Positions 3,801 through 62,838 of a DNA stretch of 64,000 bases are shown here, piece after piece (position 1 is the first letter of the stretch; every line of letters begins with the position of its first letter). This DNA comes from an uncultured Actinomycetota bacterium (GTDB lineage Bacteria > Actinomycetota > Actinomycetes > JAFAQI01): positions 1 to 64,000 of the forward strand of contig CAVYQE010000001.1 of the NCBI GenBank assembly GCA_963770565.1, written 5' to 3'. The translations under genes were made by a program, and so were the position numbers. The notes beneath the pieces were generated by a model. That model was not told where the DNA came from, made no database searches, and saw only the letters and a list, made by a program, of their open reading frames with translations.

Positions 3801-4264
3801 CCATTCAAGACCCGGAATACCCGGAAATGTTTTCATCCACAGATTGCATACGCAGCCGTCAGGCCGCAACCAAGTTTTTACACGAGGTCACGGAAAAACC
3901 GAGAGCGAGAAAGCACGGCGGCATGACAGATCGGGAACACTAATCCTCGCTAATCAGCACTAATCAGCGCTAATTAGCTGCCGATTAGTGTTCCTAAAAC
4001 CGGCTGTACTGGGTTTTCAGCGGGTGACGAGAAAATCCTCGCGATTTGCGCATCCCCTCTTGTGATAAGTGCAGCGGTGTTTCGGAGGCGAGAAGGGGGC
4101 CAGCAGGCCGGGTTGCCGGCCTGGAGTGATGGAGGTCTACGATCTGCCGCGCTGTCCGCCCCCATTGAACGCCTGAGCCATGCCTTGAAAATCCTGGGGG
4201 CCTAGGGGCAAAGCCCCCAGTCTGTGCTTGCCCGCCGAAGGAGCCCACTCAAGACCCGGAATAC
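831..4264. repeat. Tandem array of ~388-405 bp units (8 full units plus a terminal variant)
   Basis: cggctgtactggg starts at 831, 1233, 1629, 2022, 2410, 2798, 3192, 3597, 4001; near-identical units. Confidence 0.97.
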
Positions 4265-38984: not shown

Positions 38985-39242
38985 GCGCCCGGCACTGGCA
39001 GACTGCGCTTGCCAGTGGCACACGGCGCTCGGCGCATGATCGCCTTTCGCTTCCGCGAAAGAATGTGCGCTCTTTCGCGGAGCGAAAGGCGACAATGGCT
39101 CGTCCGGCACGGACAACCGCGCACGTGTGCCACGGGCAAGCAACGTCTGCCCGTGCTGCGCTGCCGCTCGCTCTCTACTCGCCGCTCATCGACAGCCGGC
39201 GCCCCCGGCACTGGCAGACTGCGCTTGCCAGTGCCACCCGCC
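38985..39242. repeat. Cluster of different REP-like palindromes
   Basis: cactggcagactgcgcttgccagtg twice; tttcgcttccgcgaaag..ctttcgcggagcgaaa; cacgggcaag..gcccgtg. Confidence 0.7.
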
Positions 39243-39248
39243 GGGTGA

Positions 39249-39966
39249 TCAACGACGGGCGTCTCGCTTCGCGTCTTCCATCGGCTTTGATCCGTAAACA
39301 AGCTTTCGAAGCCGCTCCGTTGTCGTATCATCATCGAGGAACTCCACGTCGCCGTTCCAATGCAATACCATAGCCCCACCGTTGTGGCGGCTCGAAATCG
39401 ACAGCAACTTGGACTTGTCAACCCCGAGAACGGCGTCGGTCGCGGCTAGATCCCGGGGCTCCGACCAAGCGATCCGCGAGTTCGAGACCTCGGTGACCGC
39501 GACGGTGTTCCGCAGGTTGCGCTGTCTTCCGCGCCATCGGTTCGTTCCAAACTGTATTTGGCCCGACGATAGCGAGGTAGGAAACCGAAGAGTCACGGCG
39601 GTCCGCGCTGGGGCAGCGGAAGACGCTCGGCATCTCTCCAATCAGGGCTTTGTTGTGCGGTCCGTTCCATGGTTCGTCGAAGCGATACCGTTCGAACAAC
39701 GGTATCTGCCCCAGATACGGTAGTAGTAAAGTACGCCAACTGTGTATAGGTTTTCCGCTGCCATCGACAACATCGGCCGGCGGAAGCATGCCGTGGTCGA
39801 GACGGTAGGCGCGGATAGCCATTCCGATCAGGGCTAGATTTCGCTTGCACCTGTTGCGCGCGTCGTTGTCATCAAGCGGCGAGCGCAGATCGACGACGAT
39901 CAGGCCTACCCATATCGCGGCAGCCGCAACGCCGAGTAATGATCCGATTACAGCAAGCCTTTTCAT
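39249..39966 (-). CDS. DUF1559-domain protein (frameshifted)
   Basis: CKRNLALIGMA..HSWRTLLLPYL..DEPWNGPHN..WSEPRD..HNGG..GDV. Confidence 0.85.
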
Positions 39967-40192
39967 GAGCAACCTGCGAACAGCGAATGAATGCCGTCCT
40001 CGGTATAACTAACACGACGGCAGTGCCATTCCAGACAGTCACCGATTTGGCTATTTGACCAGAGCGTGGGCAATTGGGCAAGTTCGTTGCGAGCGCTGGA
40101 GCGGCGGATTTTAGCGGCGCGATTGGAGTGCGATTCGCCGGCGGCCGAGCCGACGGCGCATCGTGAGCGGATTGAAGGCTGACGCCGGTTCG

Positions 40193-40333
40193 GGCGACCT
40201 TCCAGCCCGTCACCCTTTGCCCTCGCTTCCCCCTTCGCAATCTGCTCCCCTCGCGACATCCCCGCCATGGCTCGAAATCAGCTCGCCTCCCCTCCCCGCC
40301 GCGCTCAAAACGTGTCTGTCTGGACTGGTTCCC
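40193..40333. repeat. ~140-bp conserved segment ending in the GTGWCTGTCTGGA motif, copy 1
   Basis: Direct repeat of 41496-41640. Confidence 0.8.
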
Positions 40334-40383
40334 AGATTACGTAGGATGCTCTTCCGCCTTGATTGTGACCCCCTCTAAAATGG

Positions 40384-41205
40384 TTATTCGCCGTCGGCAC
40401 TGTCCGCTTCGGGCAAGATCATACACCCCGGCAGACGCGCACCGAGTTCCTTGAGGCCGCTCTTGGTTATCCGCGTGCGGTAGACCTCAAGTCGCTTCAG
40501 CCGGCGGAGCGAGCAGATGTCGTCGATGCACTTGTCGCTGACCCGATCTCTGTACAAGCCGAGTTCCTCGAGGTTTTCGAACCGACGGAGAACCTTCCCG
40601 GATCGGTCGGTGATCGGTGCATTGAGATCAAGAATGCGCAATGTCCGTTGGCATGCGAGGTATTCAAGCCCGGCGTCGGTTGCTTTGGTTGCCCGCAGCC
40701 GGAGAACCTCCAAATGCTTGAGAGCAGCGAGCCTTTGCATTCCCGAATCGGTGATGTTTGCTCCTCCGATGCCCAGGCCTTTGACCGTGGTGAATCGACA
40801 GATTTCACCGAGAAGTTCGTCTGTGACGCCGTCGTCCATTCGGATACAGGCAATGTCCTGGAAGTAGTCGTCGCCGAGCGCAACGAAGCCACTTGGGCGC
40901 AGGAGGGCCGACGGGCCACTTTTGAGACGTCGGATTGATCGGACTCGCGAGAGGCTCGTAGTTCGGATCATAATAGGGACGATGATTCGTATACGAGGGG
41001 TAGTCAACAAGCACGCGCCATGGATCCGGTTCCCAGTCGTAGGTGATGCGCCCATCGAGTTGGCGAATCTTCTGGGAAAGGCGCGCACACTTCTGCCGTG
41101 CTTCGTGACGATCCCAAGCGACACTCCGATCGCCGTCGTCACCAATAGCAACGTGCGAAGGCTGAATCGCGGCCGCCGCAATCTTCGGATGAATGAACTC
41201 CACAT
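40384..41205 (-). CDS. Leucine-rich repeat protein with RFSLRTLL N-terminus (frameshifted)
   Basis: ITDSGM..L..L.VLRL..TDAGLEYL repeats; LPGCMI C-cap. Confidence 0.85.
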   Translation of the reverse strand: MWSSFIRRLRRPRFSLRTLLLVTTAIGVSLGIVTKHGRSVRAFPRRFANSMGASPTTGNRIHGACLLTTPRIRIIVPIMIRTTSLSRVRSIRRLKSGPSALLRPSGFVALGDDYFQDIACIRMDDGVTDELLGEICRFTTVKGLGIGGANITDSGMQRLAALKHLEVLRLRATKATDAGLEYLACQRTLRILDLNAPITDRSGKVLRRFENLEELGLYRDRVSDKCIDDICSLRRLKRLEVYRTRITKSGLKELGARLPGCMILPEADSADGE

Positions 41206-41495
41206 GCCGCACCTATCGGCTACGCGCCGGGATTGATCTTGCACGATGCAATTATGTACGACAAGTTCGTCCGGCGCCAATCGCACTGAAAATAAACGTA
41301 GCCGGCGTTCTTGCCTTTCCCCAGGTACTGTTCCAGTGCAAACCAGTTGGGTAATGTACTTCGTCGCGACCCCCGGTTGATCCTGGATCATGATTTGGGG
41401 AAGCGGAGTATTGAAGAATTGGGCGTCGATCACGTCCGTGTCCTTGCCTTTGCCTTTCAGTTGGGCGGCGAAGGCTTTCTTGTCGTATGCAAGAA

Positions 41496-41640
41496 GGCGA
41501 CCTTCCAGCCCAGCCGCCGTTTTCTTTCGCCTCTCAGCTTCCCGCTCTCCTCCCCTCGCGACATCCCCGCCATGGCTTGAAATCAGCTCGCCGCGCGCTC
41601 CGCGGCGTGGTCAATATGTGACTGTCTGGACTTGTTCCCC
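41496..41640. repeat. ~140-bp conserved segment, copy 2
   Basis: Shares ggcgaccttccagccc, tcccctcgcgacatccccgccatggct, gaaatcagctcgcc, ctgtctggact with copy 1. Confidence 0.8.
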
Positions 41641-41817
41641 CATTACCATCATCCGAAGTCGCCCTAATTCCAAGCTGACGGCCAGCAACTGTGGTTTTTG
41701 ACGTTCTTGCAACGACTTATCACTCGGGACTTATACACCATAACCGTTCCGGTGATCGCCAGCCAATCATTTCAACCACGCAGATCGCATTGTTTTGGGT
41801 ACACCATCGAGCGCTTC

Positions 41818-42554
41818 TCACCTCACCCGCCCGAGCACATGCACAAGCACATTTGACGCTTCGTCAATTGGCTGAAACTGCAGCGAGCCGAATTCGCTAA
41901 TGACATCCAATCCGGCGGCGACGTAAGCGGTCAGAAGTTCATTCCGAGTTACGAGCGCGACACTATACTCTTCACTGGCCACAATCGCGCCGGCAGCGCT
42001 GCGATAGTCCACATGGCACGTAGACGTCTGGCTGATCCAATCCCGAGTACACCTAAACTCTACCACAACCGGCCCAATAGCTGGCATATCAATCAGCTTC
42101 CTGGCGCTCGTAGTTGCTTTTGCCCAATTGTCGAAATCGTGCATAAACTGTACAACAACGATCCGACCGTGTTTTTCTAAAAGCGATCCAGCTGCGATAA
42201 GCGCCGCAATACGATCATTCACACCTATAAACTCGGAAATCACGTTGAACGCAAAAAGCACAAGGTCAAACGGTCCGTCAAGACAGCCAGTTAGAAAATC
42301 GAAGCACTTCACCGTCACGTGTGACGATTTAATCTGTGCGGCGGCATAATCAGCTCGTCCACGATCTTTTTCGATGCCGACTAGGTCGATCTCAGGCAGC
42401 CGTTCGCTAAGTGCCGACAAAAGTCTGCCCGTGCCACAACCAATCTCCAATACACGTCCGCATTCTCGGCTAATCTAGTCAGCGCAGATATGTCGCTTGT
42501 AATGCCCGCCATCCGGCAGGCAAAATAGTCGATGGCATTCGGAGAATGGCTCAC
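41818..42554 (-). CDS. Class I SAM-dependent methyltransferase, AT-richer (one frameshift)
   Basis: LEIGCGTGR, FDLVLFAFN; AAGGAG RBS before GTG. Confidence 0.85.
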
Positions 42555-43008
42555 CGTATCGCTCCTTTCAATCAAATTGCTTCTGGTTAACGACTGTAAC
42601 CGCGAGCCTATTTTTACACCCAGCAAGGCCAACGGATCCAGTTCGGCGTTTCACACTCGTCTGCGATGCTCGTTGTTCGCTCGGTGCGACCACGCCATCC
42701 ACGCATAACAATCGGGCGTAACTCGCATTCCGTGTCCATCTATTCTTACCAAGGTTCCAGACGACGCCATTCCAGACAGTCACCCATTAGACCACGTTGC
42801 AGACGCGAGGCAAGTTTGTTCCGAGCCTGGGAGCGGATGATCGCGGCGGCGCACGGGCCCTTTCAGACCGGACCTTTTCAGACAGTCACTTTGGCACGGT
42901 TTTCTCACACCGGCCCTTGCCTCACCTCCGCAACTTCGTTGAATCGGTGACTGCCTGGAGCTGCTTCTCGTGACTGTCTGGAACTGCTTCACGCTTTCCG
43001 CGCCACGT

Positions 43009-43575
43009 TAGTGGCCAAACAGGCGTTCCCCCGGCAAAGGGCCGGGCGGGGACGCCGCCGCTCCACCGGCCCCGTGCCGGTGGACGGAAACGTTTGGTCA
43101 CTACAACGCCTCCGCTTCACGCTTTCCGCGCGACGTTAGTGGCCAAACATGCGTTCCCCCGGCACAGGGCCGGGCGGGGACGTCCCCGCTCCACCGGCCC
43201 CGTGCCGGTGGACGGAAACGTTTGGTCACTAGTGGCCAAACATGCGTTCCCCCGGCACAGGGCCGGGTGGGGACGCTCTCGCTCCATCGGCCCCATGCCG
43301 GTGGACGGAAGTGTTTGCGCGCTAGTGGCCAAACATGCGTTCCCCCGGCTCAGGGCCGGGCGGGGACGCTCTCGCTCCATCGGCCCCATGCCGGTGGACG
43401 GAAGTGTTTGCGCCACTAGTGGCCAAACATGCGTTCCCCCGGCTCAGGGCCGGGCGGGGACGCCCCCGCTCCACCGGCCCCGTGCCGGTGGACGGAACCG
43501 TTTGGTCACTAGTGGCCAAACATGCGTTCCCCCGGCACAGGGCCGGGCCGGGACGCCGCCGCTCCACCGGCCCCG
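43009..43575. repeat. Tandem array of ~93-bp palindromic units (5 full plus 1 partial)
   Basis: tagtggccaaac..gtttggtcacta arms with an internal ccaccggc/gccggtgg hairpin. Confidence 0.92.
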
Positions 43576-43756
43576 GGCAGCGCTGAGAGTGGGGCAATTG
43601 CCCGGTTCCCCTCTCGACTTGCCCCCGGCGGCGGGCCAGAATGAGGCCGAGACTTCAGCCCTCGCGAGCGGGCCGACGGGCGCGTCCCTTGGCGAGCTGT
43701 CTGCCGGCGCTCGGAGTGAAGCCCCCCGGAGCCGTCGCCGCCCGTCCGAGATTCCG

Positions 43757-45409
43757 ATGCCGAAAGCCACGAGTTACGACGAAGTCCCCTATCCGCGATT
43801 GGCGTTTCCGCTCACGCATCCTTCGCATTTGGGCACGATTGGGCGGCTGTTGGGGATGGCGCCGGCCGCCGTCGAATCGTGTCGCGTGCTGGAACTCGGC
43901 TGCGCGAGCGGCAGCAATCTCGTGCCGATGGCCTATGGTCTGCCGCAGAGCCGGTTCGTGGGGATCGATTTGTCGGAGCGGCAGATCGCCGACGGCCAGC
44001 AGTTCGTCGCCGCGCTGGGCTTGAACAACGTCCGCCTGACGCGGCTCGATATCCGTCAAGCCGGCGAGCAATTGCAGGCCGCAGGGCCGTTCGATTACAT
44101 CATTGCCCACGGCATCTATTCCTGGATTCCCGATCCCGTGAAAGACGCCTTGCTGGCGGCTTGCAACCGGCTGCTGGCGCTCAGCGGGATCGCCTATGTC
44201 AGCTACAACTGCTATCCGGGCTGCCAGGGGCGCGACATGCTCCGGCAGATGAGTCAGTACCACGCCCGCCAGGCCGCCGGCCCGCGCGAATATGCCGCGA
44301 TAACGCGGCAGTTTCTCGAGTGGCTGCGCCAGGGGCTCGGCACCGGCGACGACGCCTATCGCGGCGCGCTGCGGCAGCAGGTCGAGGATCTCGCGCAAGT
44401 GCCCGACGAGGTGCTGTTGCACGACGATCTCGAAGGGGACAACGACCCGCGCTTCTTCCATCAATTCATGGCCCACGCGGCGGAGCACGGCCTGCGCTAT
44501 CTAGGCGACGCCTACTTCGGGCAAATGTTCGGCGCCGGGATCCAACCGGCGGCGCTGGAAAAAATCCGTCATGCGGGCGATCGGCTGGCCTTCGAGCAAT
44601 ACCTCGACTTCCTCTACGGCCGCTCGTTGCGCACGACGCTCTTGTGCCGCGCGGAAATCGGAGTGACCGGCGAGATTGCCTCCGAAGGAGTGCGCCACCT
44701 TTGGATCGCGGGCGCGGCGCGGCCGGTTTCCGCGACGAACGTCCCGCTCGACCTGGCGTCGCTGCGTTTGGACGGCGACGCCCCGATCGTTTTTCGCAGC
44801 GACGAATGCACGCTCTCGGTCGCGACGCCGGTCGGCAAGGCCGCCCTGTTCGAACTGGCGCTGGCCGCGCCGAAACCGATCCGCTTCGAGACGCTGCTCG
44901 ATCGGGTGCGGATTCGGCTGGCGGCCCAGCCGGCGGCCGCGGGCAGTCCGCCGCCTGTCCAGCCGACCACCGAGGGGAATCGCGCCGCGGCCGCCGCGAT
45001 CGAGCGGCAGTTGATCGAAATGACAGTCGAGTGGTTTGCCATGCGGCTGCTGGAATTGCAGGCCGCCTGCCCGCCGATCGCGACCGAGGCCGGCGCGCGG
45101 CCGGTGGCCAGCGCCGTTGCGCGGCATCAAGCGGCGCGGGGCTGGTGGCGCGTCACCAATCTTTTTCACCGCCGGATTCGGCTGGATGGCGAGTTGGGCG
45201 GGCGGATCATCGCGTTGCTCGACGGCCGCCACGATCGGGCCGCGATCGTCGAATCGCTCGTCGAGCCGGTCCGGAGCGGCCAAGTCGTGGTCCGCATCGA
45301 CGGTCGATCGCTGAGCGATCCGGACCGGATTCGTCCGCTTTTGAAAGAGCGGATCGAGGTCTGCCTCGAGGATTTCGCCCGCCATGGATTGTTGATGGAG
45401 CCGGCATGA
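43757..45409 (+). CDS. SAM methyltransferase with regulatory domain, Rickettsia PKMT-like, paralog 1
   Basis: SYDEVPY..VLELGCASGSN..FDYIIAHG..SW..SYNxYPG..EQYLDF. Confidence 0.88.
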   Translation: MPKATSYDEVPYPRLAFPLTHPSHLGTIGRLLGMAPAAVESCRVLELGCASGSNLVPMAYGLPQSRFVGIDLSERQIADGQQFVAALGLNNVRLTRLDIRQAGEQLQAAGPFDYIIAHGIYSWIPDPVKDALLAACNRLLALSGIAYVSYNCYPGCQGRDMLRQMSQYHARQAAGPREYAAITRQFLEWLRQGLGTGDDAYRGALRQQVEDLAQVPDEVLLHDDLEGDNDPRFFHQFMAHAAEHGLRYLGDAYFGQMFGAGIQPAALEKIRHAGDRLAFEQYLDFLYGRSLRTTLLCRAEIGVTGEIASEGVRHLWIAGAARPVSATNVPLDLASLRLDGDAPIVFRSDECTLSVATPVGKAALFELALAAPKPIRFETLLDRVRIRLAAQPAAAGSPPPVQPTTEGNRAAAAAIERQLIEMTVEWFAMRLLELQAACPPIATEAGARPVASAVARHQAARGWWRVTNLFHRRIRLDGELGGRIIALLDGRHDRAAIVESLVEPVRSGQVVVRIDGRSLSDPDRIRPLLKERIEVCLEDFARHGLLMEPA

Positions 45410-46960
45410 CGACGAGCTACGACCAGATCCCGTATCCGCGGCATACCTATTGGTTCACGCATCCCGATCGGCTGGCGACGCTCGGCGCCCTGCATGGGAT
45501 GAATCCGCCGCCGGTGGAGACCTGCCGGGTGTTGGAACTCGGCTGTGCCGCCGGCTCGAATCTGACTCCGATGGCTTATGCGCTGCCGGGGGCGACGTTC
45601 GTCGGCGTCGACATCTCGGCGCGGCAAATCGCCGAGGGGCAACGGTTCATCAACGCGGTCGGGCTCGAGAACATTCAGCTCGCGGCGGTCAACATTCGCG
45701 CGTATCGACGAGAGTTTCGGCCGCTTCGACTATATCATCGCCCACGGAGTCCATTCGTGGGTTCCCGCCGACGTGCAAGAGGCGATTCTGCGGGTCTGCG
45801 GCCGGCATTTGACCGAGCAGGGGGTGGCGCTGGTGAGCTACAACGCCTACCCCGGCTGCCATCTGCGGCAAATGGTGCGCGGGATGGCCCAGTTTCACGT
45901 GCGCGACATCGACGATCCGGCGGAGAAGGTCGGCCAGCTTCATGCGCTGGTGCGGTTTCTCGCGGATTCGCTGAGCGACGACTCCAAAGTCTATCGCCGC
46001 ATCCTGCAGAGCGAAGCCGCGCGGCTGGCGATGCTCAGCGAGCCGTTCATCCTGCACGACGTATTCGAAGACGCCAATCTGCCCGTCTATTTCCATGAGT
46101 TCGTCGCGCAAGCCGCGGCCCACGGTTTGCAATATCTGGCCGAGGCGCTGCCGCTCGACCCGCGGCGGGCCGAGATTGCGCCGGCCTTGCTGGCCGAGTT
46201 CGATCGCGCCGGCGATCCGATCGCCTATGAGCAGCATCTCGATTTTCTCGACGGAACCGCCTTTCGACGCACGCTGATCTGCCGCGATTCGCTGCCGCTC
46301 GATCGCGCAATGCAGGCCCCGCCGCTCGAGCGGTTCTTGATTGCTTCACAGGCCGCTCCGACCGCGGCCGCTCCCGATTTGCACGGCGACGGCTCGGAGG
46401 AATTCGCCGCCCGCAAGGGGCAAATTGCGGCCGCGCTGCGTTGCGACCGGCCGATCGCCAAGGCGGCGCTCGTCACGCTCTTCGAGAGCTTCCCGCGGGC
46501 GTTGCCCTATGCGACGACTTTGAATTCGGCCGCCGAACGGCTCGGCCGGCGTCCAACGCCCGACGACGATCGCGAGTTGCGCGGCGTGTTGCTGGGCGGG
46601 TTCAACGTGGGGGCGATCGAACTTCATCGTTGGCAACCGGCGTTGGCCGATGGCGTCGGTGTTCGCCCCGAAGCCAGTCCGATGGCTCGCTATGAAGTGT
46701 CGCAAGGCTGGGAAGCGACAACGCTCTGGCATGAGCGATTGATTTTGACGCAGGCCGTTTTGCGTCATCTGATCATCAGTCTCGACGGCCACCGCGACCG
46801 CGAGCAAATCGCCGCCGATCTCACTTCCGCCATTCTCGCCGATCAACTTTCGAATCCCGGCGACGCGATGCGCTCGAAATCGGAAATCCGCGGCGAAGTC
46901 GATCGGCAGCTCGAAGCGGCGCTGCGCGATCTGGCCCGCGCGGCCGTGTTGATTGCCTAA
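45406..46960 (+). CDS. SAM methyltransferase with regulatory domain, PKMT-like, paralog 2 (frameshift near 45700)
   Basis: SYDQIPY..VLELGCAAGSN..FDYIIAHG..SYNAYPG..EQHLDF; ATGA overlap. Confidence 0.88.
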
Positions 46961-47100: not shown

Positions 47101-49041
47101 TCATGGCTCCAGGTCGATCCCGCGATAGAGCGGCAGGTAGCGGTAGTAAATCTCCAGCGTGCAGAGGGCGAGGCTGGTCATATAGATGCGGCCGCCGGTG
47201 CGGGTGTCGATGTCGCCGATCGCGCCGCCGCGCGGGGCCCAGCTTCCCGCGCGATGCCCGGCCCGCTCTTGCATGCGCCAGCAGCGTTTCGCGCATCGCG
47301 GCGTTCCACTGTTGCCAGGCCTCGCCGCCGACATTGTGCATGACTTGCGTGGCGTAGTACCAGTAATAGATATTCGGCCAGCGCGTGTTCGGCAGCGCTT
47401 TGCCGCATCAGGTGGCGGATGCCTTCGCGGAGGCCCGGCTGATCTTCCCGCCAGCCCAGATACTGCCGGCAGAGCAGGCCCTCGGCCGTCATCGTCGGCG
47501 ACGGACTGCGGCCCCGGCTGATAGGCGAACAGGCCCCCGTGGCGGCCAGCCCGCACCGTGTCGAGAAATCGGCCGGCATGGCGGAAAGCCGACTTGGGGA
47601 CTTTGAGATAAGCGTTCTTGCCGCTCTTGCAGCGCCATGAGCTGCCAGCCTTCGACGCTCGTATCCCCCTCTTCGCCCGGATGATAGCGCCAGCCTCCGC
47701 GGCGGTGCTGGGCATGGACGATGAAGTCGATCGCCCGCTGCGCCGCGGGGCGGAGCGACTCGTCGCCCGACATGGCCAGCGCCTCGCAGAGCACGATCGA
47801 GGCCAATCCGTGGGCATACATCCGCCCGCTGCCGGCGCCTTGCAGATCGCCGTCGGGCTTTTGATGCGCGACGATCCATTGCAAGCCATGCTCGATGGAA
47901 TCCCGATACCGGCCCTGATTCGGCGATTGCCCCGCGCCGAGAAAGGGCAACAGCGCCAGGGCGGTCGCGGCCATGTCGGACCGCTCCCCCCTTCGCCGTC
48001 GCATTGGCCGTTGCAATCGCCGACGCGATCGAACCGATCGAGCGACCAACTGCCGTCGCGGGCTTGATGGTGATTGAGCCAGTGCAAACCGGCCGCGACG
48101 GCCGCCTCGGTATGGATCGAACCCCCCTCTTCATCGACCATTTCGCGGCGAATGCGCGGATCGCGCCCTTCGAGCATCCGGCGGCGCGATGGCGTTTTTA
48201 CGGCCGCGATCACTTTCGCCAGCTCGGGCAGACCGCCCCGCGCATCCCGCGGCAGCGCCAGCTCATCCGCGCCGCGTTGGGCCTCGAGATCGGCCGGATT
48301 TCGCGGGATCGCGACGGTGTGGCTGGCGTGGACAGGCTTGTGGGTCGCCGGCGCTGGCTGCAAATGGGCGAGCGGCTTGGCCGTGATCGTGGAGGCGAGA
48401 GCCTGCCGATCGTCGTGCCGGAGCAGCGACCAAAGCCCGTAGGCCGCTCCGGCCGTCAACAGCAACAGGGCCGCCCAAGGCCAAATCGAGCGAAGCGGCC
48501 GACGCGCAGCCGGCGGTGTTTCCAGCGGCCCCGGTCGCACGAGTTTGGCCACCGGCGGGAGCGGAGGGGGAAGTTTCGGCAGCGGCGGCGGCTCGACCGG
48601 ACGCGCCTTGACCAACTTGGCCACGGGCACGCTCGGCGCGGCCGGTACAACCGCCGGCGCCGGCTTTCGAGCTCGTGCCGGATTTCGAAGTGGCACGGGC
48701 CGGTGCGTTGGCGCCGCGGCCTTGGTCACGGGGGGAATCGGCGTAACCCGCGCCGCCAGCAGTCGTTCGGCCTGGCGCTGCTGCTCGAGCGTGAGTTCGA
48801 TACTCGCGCCGCAATGCAAGCAGTCGGCCACCATCAGCCAAACGCGCACCGACATCGTGCGCGCCGCAATCGGGGCAGGCGCAAGCCAAAACATCGCCAT
48901 TGAGCCAAATTGCCGACTTCGCGGCCGCAGCAGCGGCGACTTTCGGGGCGGCTTTGGTCTTGGCCGCCGTTTTGTGCGCGGTGGGCGCCCCTTCGGCTCG
49001 TGGCGAGCCAGTCGTCGAATCGGAATCTTTATGGAGTTCAT
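47101..49041 (-). CDS. Prenyltransferase/squalene-oxidase-repeat protein with Cys- and Pro-rich N-terminus (frameshifted)
   Basis: GLHWL..HQ..DGSW, ALALLPFLGAG, MYAHGLA, GGWRY, LEIYYRYLPLY. Confidence 0.85.
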   Translation of the reverse strand: MNSIKIPIRRLARHEPKGRPPRTKRRPRPKPPRKSPLLRPRSRQFGSMAMFWLAPAPIAARTMSVRVWLMVADCLHCGASIELTLEQQRQAERLLAARVTPIPPVTKAAAPTHRPVPLRNPARARKPAPAVVPAAPSVPVAKLVKARPVEPPPLPKLPPPLPPVAKLVRPGPLETPPAARRPLRSIWPWAALLLLTAGAAYGLWSLLRHDDRQALASTITAKPLAHLQPAPATHKPVHASHTVAIPRNPADLEAQRGADELALPRDARGGLPELAKVIAAVKTPSRRRMLEGRDPRIRREMVDEEGGSIHTEAAVAAGLHWLNHHQARDGSWSLDRFDRVGDCNGQCDGEGGSGPTWPRPPWRCCPFSARGNRRIRAGIGIPSSMACNGSSRIKSPTAICKAPAAGGCMPTDWPRSCSARRWPCRATSRSAPRRSGRSTSSSMPSTAAEAGAIIRAKRGIRASKAGSSWRCKSGKNAYLKVPKSAFRHAGRFLDTVRAGRHGGLFAYQPGPQSVADDDGRGPALPAVSGLAGRSAGPPRRHPPPDAAKRCRTRAGRISITGTTPRKSCTMSAARPGNSGTPRCAKRCWRMQERAGHRAGSWAPRGGAIGDIDTRTGGRIYMTSLALCTLEIYYRYLPLYRGIDLEP

Positions 49042-49355
49042 CCATCATTCGACACACGATTGGCCGCGATTCGGCGGAATTTCTGCAACGGCGACTCGGC
49101 CCCTTCAACACCGTGCGTTGCGCCCGGCGCAATTCGCCGCCAGGCGGCAGGGCCAGTCGCCCTGTCGTCCGGCGTCCCTGTCGTCCGGCGTCTTTCGGGC
49201 CGCGCAGCGCAGGGCAACCGCCGGTTCCGTTTCCGCGTTTCTCCCGAAAGTCATTTGGCTTGCGGCCCGTAGCGGTTAATATACATGAGGCACGGCACGC
49301 GCTCAAATCGCCCGTGCGCTCGATCGGCAAAAACTTGGAATCGGAAGGGGACCGG

Positions 49356-50298
49356 ATGGCGACGGAGATTCGAAGCTGCGTCGCGGAGTTGGAGGCCAAC
49401 ATGGCCCAGGTCGTCCTGGGCAAACCTCACGTCATTCGGATGTGCATCGTCACACTCTTGGCCGGCGAGCATCTGCTGCTGGAAGACGTTCCCGGCGTCG
49501 GCAAGACCCTGGTCGCCAAGGCGCTGGCCAAGAGCGTCAGCGGCGACTTCTGCCGCATCCAATTCACTCCCGATCTGCTTGCCGAGCGACATCATCGGCA
49601 GCAGCCTGTTTCAGGCCCCCACCGGCGAATTCGTATTCAGCCGCGGCCCCGTGTTCGCCAATATCGTGCTGGCCGACGAAATCAACCGCACGACGCCCCG
49701 CACGCAAAGCGCGCTGCTGGAGGCGATGAGCGATCGGCAGGTCTCGGTCGATGGGCAATCGCATCCCTTGCCGTTGCCCTTCATGGTGATCGCCACGCAA
49801 AACCCGTTCGAATTCGAGGGCACCTATCCGCTGCCGGAAAGCCAACTCGATCGGTTCTTGATGCGGATTTCGATCGGCTATCCGGGGCGGGGCGACGAAT
49901 TGCAGGTGCTCTCGGCGCATCGCGGCGGCGAGCCGGTCGATGCGTTGCGGCCGGTCGTCGATGGCGATCGAATTCGCACGTTGCAGGAATCGGTCCGCCA
50001 GGTCGCCGTCGACGAGGCGATTCAAGAGTACCTGCTCGATATCATCGACGCGACGCGCCGCTGCGACGAGCTGCAGGTCGGCGCGAGCACGCGCGGTGCG
50101 CTCTGCCTGTATCGCGCGAGCCAGGCCCTGGCGGTGATCGAGGGGCGCGATTTCGTGATTCCCGACGACGTGAAGCGGTTGGCCGTGGCCGTGCTCGCCC
50201 ACCGCGTGATTGCCAAGAGCTACGCTCACGCCGGGCAGCGTCACGCCTTGGAGCAGTTGATCGAGCGGCTGGTCGATCGTGTCGCCGTGCCGGAATAG
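49356..50298 (+). CDS. MoxR AAA+ ATPase (frameshifted)
   Basis: EDVPGVGKT, RIQFTPDLLP, LADEINR, ATQNP, QLDRF. Confidence 0.93.
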
Positions 50299-50416: not shown

Positions 50417-51586
50417 ATGTTTTTCCGGGGACGAACGCGATTGACCCGCGAAGGATACTACTTCGTCGTCATCTTGGCGCTGGTGCTGGTGCGGGCGTCG
50501 ATGAAAGACATCAATCTCATGCTGGCTTTCGCCGGGATGATGGTCGGAGCGATCTATTTCAATTGGTTTGCCCTGCGAATCATGCTCCGCAAGCTCACGC
50601 TTCGCCGCCGGCTGCCCGACGCGGTCTCGGCCGGCGAGATGGCGGTGATCGAGTTGGAAGCGTCGAGCCCGCATCGTGCGACGGGCATCGAGGTCGAGGA
50701 CGCCTTCGAGTTGGCCGATTCGCCGCGGCGTGAAGACCACGGCCGCGGCCTGGCGATCTTCCCGCAACTTGTCGGCAGGCAGCCGGCGCGGGTTGCCTAT
50801 CGGGTGCGGTTCGGGCGGCGCGGGCGCTATCGATTCGGGCCGATCCGGGCGACGAGCCGATATCCGTTTCGGCTGATTTCACGGACGATCGCATTCCGGC
50901 AACCGGAGCAGCTCATCGTGCTGCCGCGGCTGGGGCGGTTGACGAGCCGCTGGGCCGGGCTCCGCCGCGCGGCGGAGCCGGGCACGCATCACGTGTTTCA
51001 ACGGCAAGGATTGAGCGAAGGCGATTTCTATGGCATGCGCGATTGGCGCTCCGGCGACAGCAAGCGGCTGATTCATTGGCGCACTTCCGCGCGCCGCGGC
51101 AGCCTCATGGTTCGGCAGTTCGAGCAGCCGCGGAGCGAGAATCTGACGTTGCTCGTCGACCTCTGGCAGCCCAGCGAGCCGACGCCCGCGCAGGAAGAGA
51201 ATGTCGAATTGGCGGTGAGCTTCGCCGCCACCGTCGTAGCCGACACCTGCCGGCGCGGCGGCTGCCGATTGCGGCTGGTCGTGGCGGGCCGCGAACAGGT
51301 CGCCGTCGACGGCGGCGCGTCGCGGGCGTTGGCGGCCGACGCGCTCGCGCGGCTGGCGGTTGCCGAAGCGGCGCCGATCGCGCGCGGCGAATTATTCGAG
51401 CCATTCGGAATCGAGCGTCCGCCGACCGGTCGGCTGGTGCTCATCAGCACGCGCCCCGAGAGTCGCGCGGCTACCGGCGCGGCCGGCGCGCATGCCGCGG
51501 CGCCGCGGCACAGCGGGACGGCGGCGCGGCTGCTGCACATCGACGCCGGCAGCGACCAACTCTTCGAGTATTTCCAAATCGACTGA
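50417..51586 (+). CDS. DUF58 protein
   Basis: RRGRY..DFYGMRDWRSGD..IHWRTSAR..LMVRQFE. Confidence 0.9.
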   Translation: MFFRGRTRLTREGYYFVVILALVLVRASMKDINLMLAFAGMMVGAIYFNWFALRIMLRKLTLRRRLPDAVSAGEMAVIELEASSPHRATGIEVEDAFELADSPRREDHGRGLAIFPQLVGRQPARVAYRVRFGRRGRYRFGPIRATSRYPFRLISRTIAFRQPEQLIVLPRLGRLTSRWAGLRRAAEPGTHHVFQRQGLSEGDFYGMRDWRSGDSKRLIHWRTSARRGSLMVRQFEQPRSENLTLLVDLWQPSEPTPAQEENVELAVSFAATVVADTCRRGGCRLRLVVAGREQVAVDGGASRALAADALARLAVAEAAPIARGELFEPFGIERPPTGRLVLISTRPESRAATGAAGAHAAAPRHSGTAARLLHIDAGSDQLFEYFQID

Positions 51587-51613
51587 AATCCCCGGCCCGG
51601 ACCACGGCTCACG

Positions 51614-54137
51614 ATGCGCCTGCCGCAGATTCACCTTCGAACGCCCCCCGCGATTGCCGCAGCCAAGCCGTCGGCGCAGCGCATGCCAAGCCGCCGGCGC
51701 AGGCCCCGCTCGGGGCGGAACGGCTGTTGCAGATCAATGTCGCCCTGCTCGTGCCGTTGGGCGCATTGATGCTGGGCATGGGAGAGCGCAGCATGACGCT
51801 CCCCGCCGTCGTCGGCATCGTGGCGCTGGCTTCGATTTTCGTCACCGATCAATGGGGCTGGTTCCGGCTGAATCGGATGGTGGCCAATGCCGTCGCGATT
51901 TTAGCGACGGTCGCCTCGGTCGTGCTGTTCATCTCCGCGACGAGCGAAGAGCAACTCACGACGATCGCCAATTTGCTGGTCTATCTGCAAATCGTGCTGT
52001 TGCTGCAGAAGAAAAACGTCCGGCTGTATTGGCAACTGCTGGTGCTCAGCGGGTTGGAAGTCGTGGTGGCGACGGCGCTCGATTCGAGCCTGCTGTTCGG
52101 AGCGCTGTTGGTGGTGTATTTGTTCGTGGCGTTGGCCGCGCTGGGATTGATTTTCGTGCTCTGCGAAGCCGAATCCCATGCCGAGCGCGGCGGAGCGCCG
52201 CATTCCGTGGCCGTCCCTCCGTGCGGCGCCGGTCCGCACTGCGCCGGCGCGGTGGCCGCTCGCGCGGGGAATTCGCGTCGTGGCCGAGCCGCCGGCCGAT
52301 CTGTCGCGGCAACTTCTCGGAGCGGGAATCTTCTGGCGGACCACCGGCATCGGGGTCGGCGCTGATCGTCGCCGCTGTCTGCTTCTTCTTTCTACCGCGG
52401 TTCGGCAAGGCGCTCGTCGAGGTCGCCGGTCAGCAGACTCTGATCGGTTACAATCCGACGGTCAAGCTCGGCGACATGGGGCCGCTCTTGCAGAATCCCG
52501 AAATCGTCATGCAGGCCCGCTTTCGCAATGCGGCCGGCGCGCCGCTCGCGCCGACGAGTCCCCCTTTGCTGCGCGGCTCGCTGCTCAATGATTATCATCG
52601 CGGGGAATGGAAGCTCAGCGGCGTCGGCACACGGTCTCGCGATCGGCTTGCCACCGCTCCGGACGATCCCGGCTTGGTCCGCGAACTCATCACGATCGAG
52701 CCGCTCAGCGACCCGGTGCTGTTCGGCGTCTATCCTCCGTATCGCTCCGGGTCGGTGCGGTCGAATCGGCACGTGCGGTACGATCCCGATCGGCAGCGAC
52801 TCGTCCGCACCAATGGCGAGGTGCAATCGCAAGAATTCTCCTATGAGATTCTCACGACCGGATTGGTGAACGGCCGGCAGGTGCGGCTGGTTCCCCTGCT
52901 CGATCCGCGGGAAGTCGCCATGCCCGATCTGTTGCAGCTTCCCGACAAACGGCCGCGGGGCACGGCGGCTTCGCCCGCACCGCCGATCGACCGGCGCGAC
53001 GCGCTCACCGGCCTGCGGGCCTTTGCCGCCCGCACGATCCGCGCGGCGAACATCCCGGCCGGCGATGCCTATGCCGAGGCCCGCGCGCTCGAGCGGGCCC
53101 TCAGCCGGCCGCCGTTCGAATATACGCTCGATCGGCCGCCGGCCACCGCCGGAATCGATCCGATCGAGGATTTCGTCACGCACAATCCGCGGGGGCACTG
53201 CGAATACTTTGCCACGCGCCCTGACGCTGATGCTCCGCAGCCAGGGGATTCCGGCCCGGATGGTGATCGGCTTTCACGGCGGCGATTGGAATCCCAACGG
53301 CTATTATTACGACGTGCGGCAGCTTCATGCCCATGCCTGGGTCGAGGCTTATCTCGATCCGCAACAAGTGCGCAAAGTCGCCGCGGGCGGAAATGCCGCC
53401 CGACCTGTCGTTCGGCGAGGGGGCCTGGCTGATTTTGGATCCGACTCCGGCCGCTCAAGCGGCCGACGCCTCCGCCGAAGGCTCGTTTCTGTCGTCGCTC
53501 GCCGATTTCTCGCACTACGTGCAAATGCTGTGGACGACTTATGTCGTCGGCCTCAATTCCGACCGGCAGGATCGGGCGATTTACCGGCCGCTGTCCAACT
53601 TCGTCCAGGCGCTGAAAAAGCTCGTGACTCATCCGAAACAGGCGGTATCGGACATCGTCGCCCATCTCCGACATTGGCTGTTCGGCGGAGGCAAGCCAAC
53701 CGACAGCCGGTTCGATTGGTATGTGCTGGCGGCCTTGGCGCTGCTGGCGCTGGCCGCTTTTCTTGTCTATCGGCTGGGGCGGCGGATCGTGCGAGCCTGC
53801 CGGCGGGCCGGCAAACGCCGCCGCTCATCGGCCGTCGCCCGCAGCCGCGTCGGATTCTATCGCCGCTTCGAGATGATCTTGGCGCGGCATGGCATCCGCC
53901 GCAAGCAGGGGGAAACGCCGCTCGAGCTGGCCCATCGCGCGGGCCGAGCGTCTGGGCGGCGATCTCGGCCGGCACCGCGCCGCCGCGTTGCCGCCGCGTC
54001 TGGTCGCCAACTTCTACCGCGTCCGCTTCGGCCGCGCCGTTCTCGACCCCGCCGAAACCGATGCGATTGCCCGGATGCTCGTCGAAGTCAACGAAGGACT
54101 GGAGGCGGGACGTGGGGAACGAGGGACGCGGGGCTAG
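51614..54137 (+). CDS. DUF3488/transglutaminase (TgpA-like) membrane protein (frameshifted; start uncertain)
   Basis: TM N-terminus; GHCEYFA, GIPARMVIGF, HAHAWVEAY, LDPTP. Confidence 0.88.
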
Positions 54138-55109: not shown

Positions 55110-55935
55110 CGGTGAACGACCCGTAGAGCAATCGGCGTTTGATGAACTCCACAGACGCTCGATCAGCTTCAGATTGGGCAAGTCCACCGGAAGGTAAGAA
55201 GCGTGATCCCCAACTCCGTAGCCAGGGCATGGACTACGCGTTGCGCTGGTAACGGGCGTTGTCGAGCACCACGGTGATGGGACCGATCAAGCTTTTGGCG
55301 GCAATCTTCCGCAACAATTCGCACATCGTCTCGGTGTTCACGACCGTCGTGTTGGTCACGTAGGTCAGTTGCCGGGTCACGGCATTCCGGGCTCCGAGCA
55401 CGTTGAACCGCTGCCGTCCCGACGCCGCCCGCACCCACAATCTCACGAACGACCACAGGCAGCACAGAAATGTCCCATAGACAAAATGGGCCGCATCCAC
55501 GAAGAAGACGTGCCCTTGACCCCCTTGGGCAACGTCCACCGGAAGGTGTCAACTGTCGGCGATTATCGGACAGACTGCTTCAAGCGACACGCCCTCGAGA
55601 CTTTTTTTGGGGGGAGTGGCACTCGATGCATCGCCACTCATCCCCATCCCTTTCATGAATTTCCTGACCTGGGTCGGACCACGCCGGAGGCCGGTCATTT
55701 TCTCGATCCGCTCGGCGGCCTCCGCCACGCTTCGGACCGGCTCTTTCTCGAACGATTCACGGATCAAATCCCGGTACGAAGCCAATTCGCTGGTGGGCCC
55801 CTTCCTGTTCCATTCTCGCAAACCGTCGAGGCCGCTAGTCCGAAAGGCCTCGACCGCGCGTTCCACTGTGGCCCTGCCTACCAGAGCGATCTTTGCCGCT
55901 ACCACTCGAGTAAACCGAATGGCGGCCAGAGCGAG
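55110..55935 (-). mobile_element. IS630-family transposase, degenerate or mosaic
   Basis: HTH part GRATVER..GLDGL..; FFVDAAHF, LDNARYQ, PNLKLIERLW; A7G slippery site at 55601-55608. Confidence 0.85.
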
Positions 55936-55947
55936 GATGCGCGCCGC

Positions 55948-56915
55948 AAAGGGGTCGGGAGTGCGATTTCGCCCGCTGAACGACCCCGTTCCCAACCGGC
56001 ATCATGGCGAAATCGATTCCTGACCCCCTTTTGGCAACGTCCACCGGAAGGTAAGGCGATTATCGGACAGACTGCTAGTCGAGCGCACGCCCTCGCTAGC
56101 GCGTTGGGCTAGTGGGACCACTCGATAAACCATGGCGGCGAGGGGATGCGCCGCGAAAGGGGTCGGGAGTCGATTTCGCCCGCTGAACGACCCGTAGTAC
56201 CAACCGGCATCATGGCGAAATCGATTCCCGACCCCCTTTTGGCAACGTCCACCGGAAGGTAAGGCGGTTATCGGACAGACTGCTAGTCAAGCGCACGCCC
56301 TCGCTAGCGCGTCGGGCTAGTGGGACCACTCGATAAACCATGGCGGCGAGGGGGTGCTCGCCGCGAAAGGGGTCGGGAGTCGATTTCGCCCGCTGAACGA
56401 CCCGTAGTACCAACCGGCATCATGGCGAAATCGATTCCCGACCCCCTTTTGGCAACGTCCACCGGAAGGTAAGGCGGTTCTCGGAGAGGCTCCTAGCCAA
56501 GCGCACGCCCTCGCTAGCGCGTCGGGCTAGTGTGGCCGCTCGATAATTTGTCGCGGCGAGGGGATGCGCGCCGCGAAAGGGGTCGGGAGTCGATTTCGCC
56601 CGCTGAACGACCCGTCAGCGCCAACCGGCATCATGGCGAAATCGATTCCCGACCCCCTTTTGGCAACGTCCACCGGAAAGTAAGGCGGTTATCGGAGAGG
56701 CTCCTAGCCAAGCGCACGCCCTCGCTAGCGCGTCGGGCTAGTGGGACCACTCGATAAACCATGGCGGCGAGGGGATGCGCGCCGCGAAAGGGGTCGGGAG
56801 TCGATTTCGCCCGCTGAACGACGCGTAGTGCCAACCGGCATCATGGCGAAATCGACTCCCGCCCCCCTTTGGCAACGCCCACCGGAAGGTAAGCCGGCTG
56901 CTCGGACAGGCTGCT
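55948..56915. repeat. Tandem array of ~210-bp units (4 full plus 1 partial)
   Basis: aaaggggtcgggagt at 55948, 56156, 56366, 56576, 56787; also at 55084. Confidence 0.95.
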
Positions 56916-57794
56916 AGGGCGTCAAGCAGAGCCCGACCAGGATGTCGTAGAAAGCATGGCTGCCGGCGGCGATCCCGAATCCGCGATAGACGAACAGCAC
57001 CGCGAAGAACGCCCCCGCCACGAAGCGGAACAGAAATGTCGAGAGTTCCAACGGCTGGCCGTGAGGGCCGATATAGTGCGCGGCCGAGAAGAGCACGCTG
57101 GTGATCAGCACCGCTCCGACCAACGCTTGCCGGGGCGTGCAGCCGGCCAACTTCAGCCCCCACGCCGCCAACGGCAGCAAAGTCAACCGAAACAGCACTT
57201 CCTCATAAATGCCCGCCCCGAAAAATGCGACCAGCTTGCCCGCGCCGTGCAGGGCGCCGCTGAGAATCGAGGCCGAGACGGGCCAGTCGCACTGGGCCGG
57301 CAGAAACATCGATAACAGCGATCCTTGAAGGCGGGCAATCACCACCAGCGCCAGCGCCAGCAGCAGGCATTCGGCAAACATCGCATACAGCACCCCCGGC
57401 ACGACCCGCCAGGGTTGCCCCGTCGTATGATGCCAGCCGAGCAGAATCCCGATGGTCAAGACGGGGAGCAGAAAGTATTGGCCGAAGCCCAGCAGATCGA
57501 GCAGTTGGCGGAGCCAGACGTCGGCGCCGTTGCGCATCGCCTGGGCGCCGAGCCAGATCACGCCCGCTTCGTAGAGAACCAGCAGCGGAGCGATGAAGGC
57601 CAGGCAGGTGAGCGGTCGGCGCGATTGCTGCCAATAATACCCGCTCGCCTGGGGCCAGATGCACGTATTGCCGAAAAGCGTTGCAAGCACAGCGAGCGGG
57701 GAGAGACGATGATTGGAAGGCGAGGGAGTCGGCTGCTCGCCGTGGAACTTCCTTGTGAGATCGCGATGACTTGTCGCGCCGGCCATATTGATCA
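56914..57794 (-). CDS. CPBP-family intramembrane glutamic protease (start uncertain)
   Basis: EEVLFR, FSAAH, HAFYD. Confidence 0.9.
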
Positions 57795-62456: not shown

Positions 62457-62838
62457 TAGGACGGCTCTCCCGAGCCGTCCAGAGTTCACCGGACTGCTCG
62501 GAAGAACCACGCTCCCCAGACGAGGACGGCTCGGGAGAGCCGGCTTTACGTTGACCAGACGGCTCGGGAGAGCCGTCCTACATTGACCAGACGGCTCGGG
62601 AGACGGGCTTTACGTTGACCAGACGGCTCGGGAGAGCCGTCCTACATTGACCAGACGGCTCGGGAGAGCCGGCTTACGTTGGGCAGACGGCTCGGGAGAG
62701 CCGGCTTTACGTTGGGCGGACGGCTCGGGAGAGCCGTCCTACATTGACCAGACGGCTCGGGAGAGCCGGCTTACGTTGGGCAGACGGCTCGGGAGAGCCG
62801 TCCTACGTTGGGCAGACGGCTCGGGAGAGCCGTCCTAC
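62457..62838. repeat. GTAG-type REP array: 10 tandem ~32-bp units plus one inverted copy
   Basis: gacggctcgggagagccg core at 62525-62815 with 32-33 bp spacing; gtaggacggctctcccgagccgtc at 62457. Confidence 0.93.

Follow-up and report, generated by a model that had tools for sequence, protein, structure and literature searches.

Is the stretch between positions 39249 and 42990 of this DNA a new kind of gene-capture array? The stretch lies in what we call the window, the first 64,000 nucleotides of contig C1 (CAVYQE010000001.1) of an assembly filed under an uncultured actinomycete. Three genes sit there side by side on the minus strand, encoding a methyltransferase, a protein resembling leucine-rich repeat (LRR) proteins and a member of the DUF1559 family, and copies of a 13-base motif, GTGACTGTCTGGA, lie between them. 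A sequence-only reading of the window took the arrangement for an integron-like array working with a recombination site of its own. Our answer is that the motif is the terminal inverted repeat (TIR) of a homologous non-coding element of 83-128 bp, not a bare site, and that an ordinary miniature mobile repeat is more likely here than a new gene-capture system.

The motif itself is well founded. Eight sites in the window match GTGACTGTCTGGA when up to two mismatches are allowed; 100 dinucleotide-preserving shuffles gave 0.58 on average and never more than 3. Four copies are exact (40030-40042 and 42771-42783 on the minus strand, 41618-41630 and 42970-42982 on the plus strand), three carry one mismatch (40312, plus; 42877, minus; 42947, plus) and one carries two (40201, minus). 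Every spacer around the three co-oriented, AT-richer genes holds a copy, and a longer form, GGTGACTGTCTGGAATGGC, lies upstream, on the minus strand, of the DUF1559 gene as well as of the methyltransferase. The sequence-only reading had placed the motif ahead of these two genes, where the minus-strand exact copies indeed are, and had seen a cluster at 42876, 42947 and 42970, which corresponds to the copies at 42877 (minus), 42947 (plus) and 42970 (plus). Seven exact copies exist in the whole assembly. At up to one mismatch the first 397 kb of C1 has 14 matches and a reversed control none; the other 4 Mb of the assembly has 2, against 5 for the control. The 13-mer is neither self-complementary nor tagged with GTAG or CGTC, and inspection of all copies with 60-nt flanks found no dyad partner for it.

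What the copies share goes well beyond 13 bases. In an alignment of all of them, homologous sequence runs for some 60-110 nt 5' of the motif. A profile built from a body of about 95 nt plus the motif gives ten nhmmer matches, nine of them strong (E between 1.9e-23 and 1.8e-14) and the tenth weaker (1.3e-5), and every one falls within C1:40-349 kb, at four loci (40-43, 87, 197 and 348 kb) that span 308 kb. Six copies are full, 83-128 bp in length, with the motif inverted at both ends, the two terminal motifs 57-100 nt apart and a conserved, homologous body between them. Three of these belong to the array: E1a (40201-40324, plus strand, 124 bp, E 3.8e-18), E6 (41503-41630, plus, 128 bp, E 3.9e-19) and E2n (42877-42959, plus, 83 bp, E 5.4e-16). 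The other three are E3 (87788-87907), E4 (197003-197112) and E5 (348302-348425). There are also solo modules with no recognisable far repeat, two of them on the minus strand of the array (40134>40023, E 7.3e-17, and 42879>42765, E 1.9e-23) and a degenerate one at about 348992>348940, as well as a short family fragment at 87286.

The ends are kept by sequence identity. In the 13 terminal pairs we found no compensatory change (0 of 13); mismatches simply break pairs. Such ends would fit a site recognised by a protein better than a fold of RNA or DNA under selection. Hairpin folding of the elements is inconsistent, with only the 13-bp terminal stem recurring, and the z-scores of seven sequences folded as single-stranded DNA were -0.39, -3.04, -2.63 (this one E2n), 0.05, -0.66, -4.08 and -0.78. 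The conserved segment of about 140 bp that had been noticed after the methyltransferase and the LRR gene is real: 40193-40340, which contains E1a, and 41496-41646, which contains E6, are 80.8% identical over 151 columns, and the assembly holds no third copy. Inspection by eye led us to reject mutagenesis of the diversity-generating retroelement type between these two 150-bp copies (their mismatches are of all kinds) and, separately, readings of the motif as a sigma-54 or an extracytoplasmic function (ECF) sigma-factor promoter.

How do the elements sit among the genes? The AT-richer block described earlier is there, with a GC content of 0.49-0.61 across roughly 39.2-42.8 kb against 0.65-0.72 on either side. 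Its left edge is formed by hairpin repeats of another family (38985..39243; two 43-nt copies with the core CACTGGCA...TGCCAGTG), which follow directly on the DUF1559 stop and include no motif copy. The DUF1559-family gene (39249..39972, minus, GC 0.584) is spread over two overlapping open reading frames (ORFs; 39418-39972 and 39249-39641) and matches PF07596 at E 1.9e-17, its C-terminal piece at E 0.067. Facing its start, 57-64 nt away, is the exact motif (40042-40030) that ends the solo module 40023..40134. Next comes E1a, with GTGTCTGTCTGGA at 40312-40324 (plus) and GTGACGGGCTGGA at 40201-40213 (minus), beginning 59 nt past the stop of the LRR-like gene. That gene (40384..41212, minus, GC 0.581) has a planctomycete-type N-terminus, and two or more frames are needed to read it (ORFs 40805-41212 and 40384-41433). 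E6, with an exact motif at 41618-41630 (plus) and a degenerate far repeat at 41503-41517, lies 187 nt past the stop of the S-adenosylmethionine (SAM)-dependent methyltransferase (41818..42556, minus, GC 0.52), which matches six Methyltransf families of Pfam. ORF 41818-42450 of the methyltransferase aligns collinearly with residues 9-216 of the single homologue that was detected, and a GTG led by a Shine-Dalgarno sequence stands at 42556 in another frame. The exact motif that ends the solo module 42765..42879 (42783-42771) faces the methyltransferase start. E2n follows, with GTGACTGTCTGAA (42889-42877, minus) and GTGACTGCCTGGA (42947-42959, plus) as its ends, and the extra exact motif at 42970..42982 (plus) arose where 23 bp at the E2n end were duplicated in tandem (42947-42990). 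As to the gene calls made earlier, co-orientation, DUF1559 and the SAM methyltransferase stand; the LRR call is weak, with PF24758 at 21.2 bits, under the 27-bit cut-off.

The right edge of the low-GC block, like the left, lies outside the motif family: it is a tandem array of an unrelated hairpin-bearing repeat with 93-bp and 128-bp periods (42986..43575), set between the elements and a PKMT-type methyltransferase gene. From 43137 to 43575 a 93-bp unit that contains a TCCACCGG...CCGGTGGA hairpin is repeated 4.7 times, upstream of the first of two such genes, whose ORF (43094-45409) the array artificially lengthens. The two genes are tandem paralogues (43600-46960) with Methyltransf, MethyTransf_Reg and PKMT_2nd domains, and the second is split into ORFs 43879-46098 and 45578-46960. 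Split over two overlapping ORFs each are also a MoxR-type AAA ATPase gene (48900-50298) and a TgpA-like gene (51043-53432). Because MoxR, TgpA and the second PKMT gene are broken too, we read the frameshifts in the DUF1559 and LRR-like genes as possible assembly indels; the split genes of the window may reflect frequent assembly errors of this kind or real frameshifts, and they are not proof of decay.

Whose DNA is this? The first ~397 kb of C1 is a fragment of an uncultured Pirellulales planctomycete, chimerically joined to the genome of another organism. GC content is 0.629 over C1:1-385 kb and 0.689 in the remainder of C1. The tetranucleotide usage of C1:1-385 kb correlates with every other part of the assembly at 0.89-0.90, against 0.997-1.000 among those other parts. 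A likelihood-ratio scan puts the switch in signature at 396-398 kb, with all 40 ten-kilobase intervals of C1:0-400 kb carrying the foreign signature and none elsewhere; since the first 350 kb of C1 served to train the model, the independent check is 350-396 kb alone. Of the 90 low-GC segments in the whole assembly, 76 fall within C1:1-384 kb. There are two HisRS genes, one in the foreign piece and one on contig C8, which are 39% identical to each other, and the one in the piece is 78% identical to that of a Pirellulales metagenome-assembled genome, its nearest genome. The aminotransferase adjoining the array has orthologues at 57-61% identity in all five of the nearest Pirellulales genomes and none in the nominal genus of the assembly. 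Because housekeeping genes adjoin it, the locus appears to be chromosomal. The contig being chimeric, negative results against the nominal relatives carry no information on the real ones, and there is a practical warning in this: relatives chosen by the assembly's taxonomy are the wrong comparison for anything in the 64-kb window. It also sets the scope of what follows, since the true source genome is represented by these ~397 kb only and our enzyme and motif searches in the source organism are limited to that piece.

The Pirellulales piece is thick with repeats. Self-matching repeats make up 14.5% of it, against 2.7% of an equal stretch of the remaining C1, and many of its low-GC segments are themselves repeat arrays; tandem arrays in the window alone have periods of 394-404, 210, 93 and 32 bp. 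The motif family is one among many dispersed or tandem non-coding repeat families here. Its members are not confined to the company of odd genes either: E4 stands 454 nt past HisRS, and E3 has a small ORF on one side and ribBA on the other. At the head of a 600-bp non-coding tandem unit are three partial copies, with the duplication breakpoint inside the element, and the rest of that unit is a mosaic of two other dispersed families, an element of about 220 bp with a long hairpin and a module of about 180 bp. About three quarters of the 76 low-GC segments of the piece have no copy nearby (coordinates compared by eye).

The neighbouring repeat families deserve a description of their own. The ~220-bp long-hairpin element occurs at C1:197198-197380 and in at least 12 other places in C1:7.9-355 kb, all within the Pirellulales piece. 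Its copies are 70-80% identical, the RNA fold z-scores of a 341-nt stretch are -6.8 and -7.7 on the two strands, and it has no match in Rfam. The ~180-bp module, with CTAATCAGCG/GATTAGTG mini-palindromes, is matched some 30 times or more, for the most part in tandem arrays whose periods are about 300-400 bp. One such array, at 831-4197 of the window, consists of 8.5 units of 394-404 bp; others lie at about 33.1, 103.8, 114.2, 185.5-186.3 and 342.6-345.4 kb of C1. A 32-bp hairpin repeat starting with GTAG, like the GTAG-tagged REPs described in PMC3733652, forms arrays at 62525-62838 of the window and at about 88.0-88.2 kb of C1. The window also holds 4.8 tandem copies of a 210-bp unit (55901-56917), to which a close likeness exists at L013:3930-4050, beside E5.

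Does anyone else carry the element? Among 40 other genomes of nominal relatives the exact motif turned up in one, as a single copy, and the DNA of 36-47 kb showed no similarity to five nominal relatives. Among the real relatives, none of 80 metagenome loci around homologues of the aminotransferase (best identity 63%) held the motif. The five genomes nearest by HisRS gave 22 one-mismatch matches, against 20 for a reversed control, and no exact one; element DNA found only two short, weak matches in these five, and in the real relatives examined there was no synteny around the aminotransferase. Across 401 Pirellulales genomes, 24 had one or two exact copies of the motif and none had more, which amounts to absence or chance level. 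Viral contigs contributed 11 single matches to a 16-base pattern, one of which fits the profile, over the motif only; on a rough judgement these are chance. A plasmid collection gave no match. From these comparisons the family appears private to this lineage, as the searches of other genomes, metagenome loci, plasmids and viral contigs did not turn it up.

An enzyme to move the elements was looked for as well. Phage_integrase has 15 matches in the assembly and none in C1:1-397 kb, the nearest being at C1:961954, which bears out the earlier remark that no integrase is near. Y1_Tnp, the domain of RAYT transposases, has no match in the assembly, and the motif does not stand next to any RAYT or tyrosine recombinase gene in the piece. 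TnpB-type, rve and resolvase/invertase genes gave no match there. The sole transposase trace is a degraded DDE_Tnp_1 gene at 264242-265027, with three in-frame stops, unrelated flanks and no motif-like ends. The earlier failure to find a canonical attC agrees with inspection of the element boundaries, which have no cores of the attC type (GTTRRRY/RYYYAAC), and Rfam gave no relevant match at the 87-kb or 197-kb locus or within 36-46 kb. Inspection found no 11-6-11 dyad in the motif.

What kind of repeat is this, then? [quoted passage not shown] By definition a MITE has a short non-coding interior between TIRs that are 10-15 bp long at the least (PMC11602168), and MITE-like intergenic repeats of bacteria are described as non-coding sequences of 70-300 bp with TIRs of 15-30 bp, lying beside genes (PMC3733652, PMC11602168). 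ERIC, Correia/NEMIS, RUP and Nezha are among those listed in PMC3733652, which also mentions TIR families possibly moved by tyrosine transposases (TIRYT). Our elements are like them in length (83-128 bp), in being non-coding, in having TIRs of at least 13 nt around a homologous interior, and in occurring as dispersed copies in both orientations in spacers beside coding sequences, along with fragments and nested or tandem copies. They would be non-autonomous repeats that transpose or recombine in the manner of the MITE/ERIC/Correia type. An enzyme acting in trans, with its gene outside the 397-kb piece, would move or copy them, and they would settle preferentially in AT-rich spacers near recently acquired or fast-evolving small genes. 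Three neighbouring spacers came to be occupied, two of them by a local 150-bp duplicate pair, and this may be all that lies behind the look of a cassette array.

Several observations weigh against this reading and we set them out together. MITEs leave target-site duplications of 2-10 bp, but around our six full elements and two outer pairs there is none, only 2-3-bp matches at inconsistent offsets. The elements are few (six full copies in 397 kb) and concentrated around small low-GC genes, the family is in no other genome searched, and no transposase with matching ends was found in C1:1-397 kb, most of the source genome lying outside that piece. E1a, E6 and E5, the full elements 3' of genes, are one subfamily, each other's closest relatives, with body identities of 0.68-0.83, and they have the same orientation relative to the preceding gene; between E1a and E6, the closest copies, the likeness continues for 16 nt past the repeat on the gene side. 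Motif copies lie directly beside five low-GC genes, in four cases on both sides, and pairs of elements in adjacent spacers number four where chance would give about 0.26 (a rough estimate from some 10 elements and 350 spacers). Because there are no target-site duplications we do not file the elements as proven MITEs; they are TIR-bounded dispersed repeats that most probably work like them.

Four genes are bracketed. The methyltransferase lies between exact motifs at 42771 (minus) and 41618 (plus), and the LRR-like gene between a degenerate one at 41503 (minus) and one at 40312 (plus). A membrane ORF of 98-122 amino acids at 87321-87689 (GC 0.545) has motifs at 87788 (minus) and 87286 (plus), and a 114-amino-acid ORF at C1:348479-348823 (minus strand, GC 0.565) has them at 348952 (minus, degenerate) and 348413 (plus). 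The flanked genes have GC contents of 0.52-0.58 against 0.62-0.67 in neighbouring genes. So the motif is not scattered without relation to its cargo: it brackets low-GC single genes here, at 87 kb and at 348 kb, and the bracketing of small low-GC orphan genes looks non-random. A search of 5.8 billion clusters detected one homologue of the methyltransferase, at 55% identity, and five related genomes did not show the gene. Of the 401 Pirellulales genomes, 2 hold homologues of the 348-kb ORF. A precomputed label, Imm40 (PF15569, polymorphic-toxin immunity), attaches to six of eight homologues of this ORF; hmmscan at E <= 1 and a family search of the assembly did not reproduce it. Local duplication, a preference for AT-rich targets, co-mobilisation of the DNA between two elements and site-specific cassette exchange could each give bracketing.

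The last two of these amount to a claim that a low-GC gene with its flanking motifs is a mobile unit, either a site-specific cassette exchanged at the 13-bp core (integron-, pdif- or inverton-like) or a composite of two miniature elements (a TIME-COMP or mobile insertion cassette), with the enzyme encoded outside the assembled DNA. We consider this unlikely, if worth taking seriously. Inward-facing motifs do bracket all four genes just described, which are low in GC and, for the methyltransferase and the 348-kb ORF, rare. At 87 kb a 39-nt direct repeat that includes the motif flanks a unit of ORF plus element body, placed as attL and attR would be, and the LRR-like gene lies between two directly repeated elements. 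But the homologous DNA lies outside the gene-bearing segments, which share the 13-mer only, and no single recombination scheme fits all the units, the bodies being inverted around the methyltransferase and direct around the LRR-like gene. The homologues of the 348-kb ORF in two other genomes have no comparable flanking inverted repeats, and the motif's absence or chance-level occurrence across the 401 Pirellulales genomes counts on the same side.

Of the cassette forms, the integron is the closest in layout. An integron cassette array adjoins an IntI-type tyrosine recombinase gene with attI, and a CALIN, a cluster of attC sites without an integrase, has at least canonical attC sites. These sites have inverted cores of the RYYYAAC/GTTRRRY type and conserve a hairpin structure while their sequence varies. 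Our locus likewise has single genes that point the same way, with an imperfect inverted-repeat site behind each, these sites too sharing one orientation, and an inverted core after a gene with a direct core before the next is the same topology. That much of the integron-like array first proposed (core> gene <core ... core>) stands; the motif, for its part, is the TIR of homologous elements and not a variable attC-like hairpin. There is no IntI, nor any other integrase, resolvase, rve or Y1 gene, in C1:1-397 kb, the cores and the dyad are missing, and site interiors are conserved in sequence and form no consistent hairpin. Solo modules also lie 5' of genes, and copies lie outside any array. A pdif site is 28 bp long, with two recombinase-binding arms of about 11 bp and a 6-bp spacer. 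Such modules resemble ours in having discrete accessory genes bracketed by an oppositely oriented short site, which a host recombinase would act on in trans; they differ in being single two-armed sites on plasmids, shared by adjacent modules, whereas our 13-mer has no dyad partner, its copies come in pairs 57-100 nt apart with a conserved body, and the locus is apparently chromosomal. The Acinetobacter modules of this XerC/D type are described in PMC6449649, PMC5790767 and PMC13141974 as accessory genes between oppositely oriented short sites. To an inverton the likeness is in the methyltransferase segment, flanked by 18-nt inverted repeats (41613-41630 and 42771-42788) that are 89% complementary, include the exact 13-mers and stand 1140 nt apart.

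Composites of two miniature elements have a precedent, since TIMEs go into AT-rich DNA and a pair of them mobilises what lies between (PMC4133298), and mobilisation between two copies of a miniature element is also described in PMC13367494. TIME-COMPs and mobile insertion cassettes, like our units, hold non-transposase genes between two small inverted-repeat elements in AT-rich surroundings. Our putative composites differ in having no flanking duplication and flanking copies that are 60-83% identical, not near-identical, and the elements have no 38-bp ends of the Tn3 type. With REP sequences and BIMEs the piece shares a mosaic intergenic layout and GTAG-tagged hairpin arrays. A REP is a palindromic unit of 20-40 bp that bears a tag, GTAG or CGTC, and is associated with a RAYT gene (PMC3733652), whereas our 13-mer is non-palindromic and untagged and the assembly has no Y1_Tnp gene.

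The cassette idea can be stated in a bolder form: this Pirellulales lineage would have single-gene units bounded by inverted 13-bp cores that a recombinase or transposase inserts, excises or flips in trans. This we regard as improbable, and equally so its corollary that the 83-128-bp elements are the joined ends between neighbouring units. Were it true, it would mean gene shuffling of the integron or pdif kind with an unrelated new site, the first such in Planctomycetota, a phylum whose mobile-element biology is little explored.

Could the elements be regulatory instead? The body of about 100 nt, with promoter-like boxes, would then be a cis-regulatory module, and the 13-mer, 1-10 nt further on, an operator or conserved transcript start. 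We would bet against it. By eye, all nine modules inspected have two boxes, T(T/C)G(C/G)C(T/C/G) and then a TCAAAT-like hexamer, at 16-17-nt spacing ahead of the motif. In five cases the motif faces a gene start (DUF1559, the methyltransferase, the 87-kb ORF, the 348-kb ORF and, with the degenerate far repeat, the LRR-like gene), and conservation by sequence, not pairing, is what a protein-binding site would have. Miniature repeats that switch on transcription next to them are known, and a section of PMC4133298 is titled 'Transcription activation by TIMEs'. Against this, a consensus scan of 38.8-43.7 kb flags no sigma-70-like promoter at any module (three sites elsewhere, 1.4 expected), the -10-like hexamers have no A at position 2, four copies face the 3' ends of convergent genes, and the start codons lie at varied distances, between 57 and about 320 nt. 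That a full element is a bidirectional control region for accessory genes seems to us no better a wager.

It is very improbable that mis-assembly, in an error-rich part of a chimeric contig with low coverage, produced the repeats or their arrangement. The piece is foreign to the remaining assembly and its split genes suggest indel errors. But the copies differ by substitutions, have unique flanks and occupy four loci as much as 308 kb from one another; the array is 354 kb away from the contig join; and indel errors could not create a 13-mer family with homologous bodies.

We come back, then, to small inverted-repeat elements that resemble MITEs. What we have is a private family of a known kind of repeat, in which the bracketing of orphan genes is the part that looks non-random. 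If the MITE-like reading is true, this uncultured planctomycete adds one more private family of small intergenic inverted-repeat elements to those already described, and it shows that such elements can mimic a cassette array.

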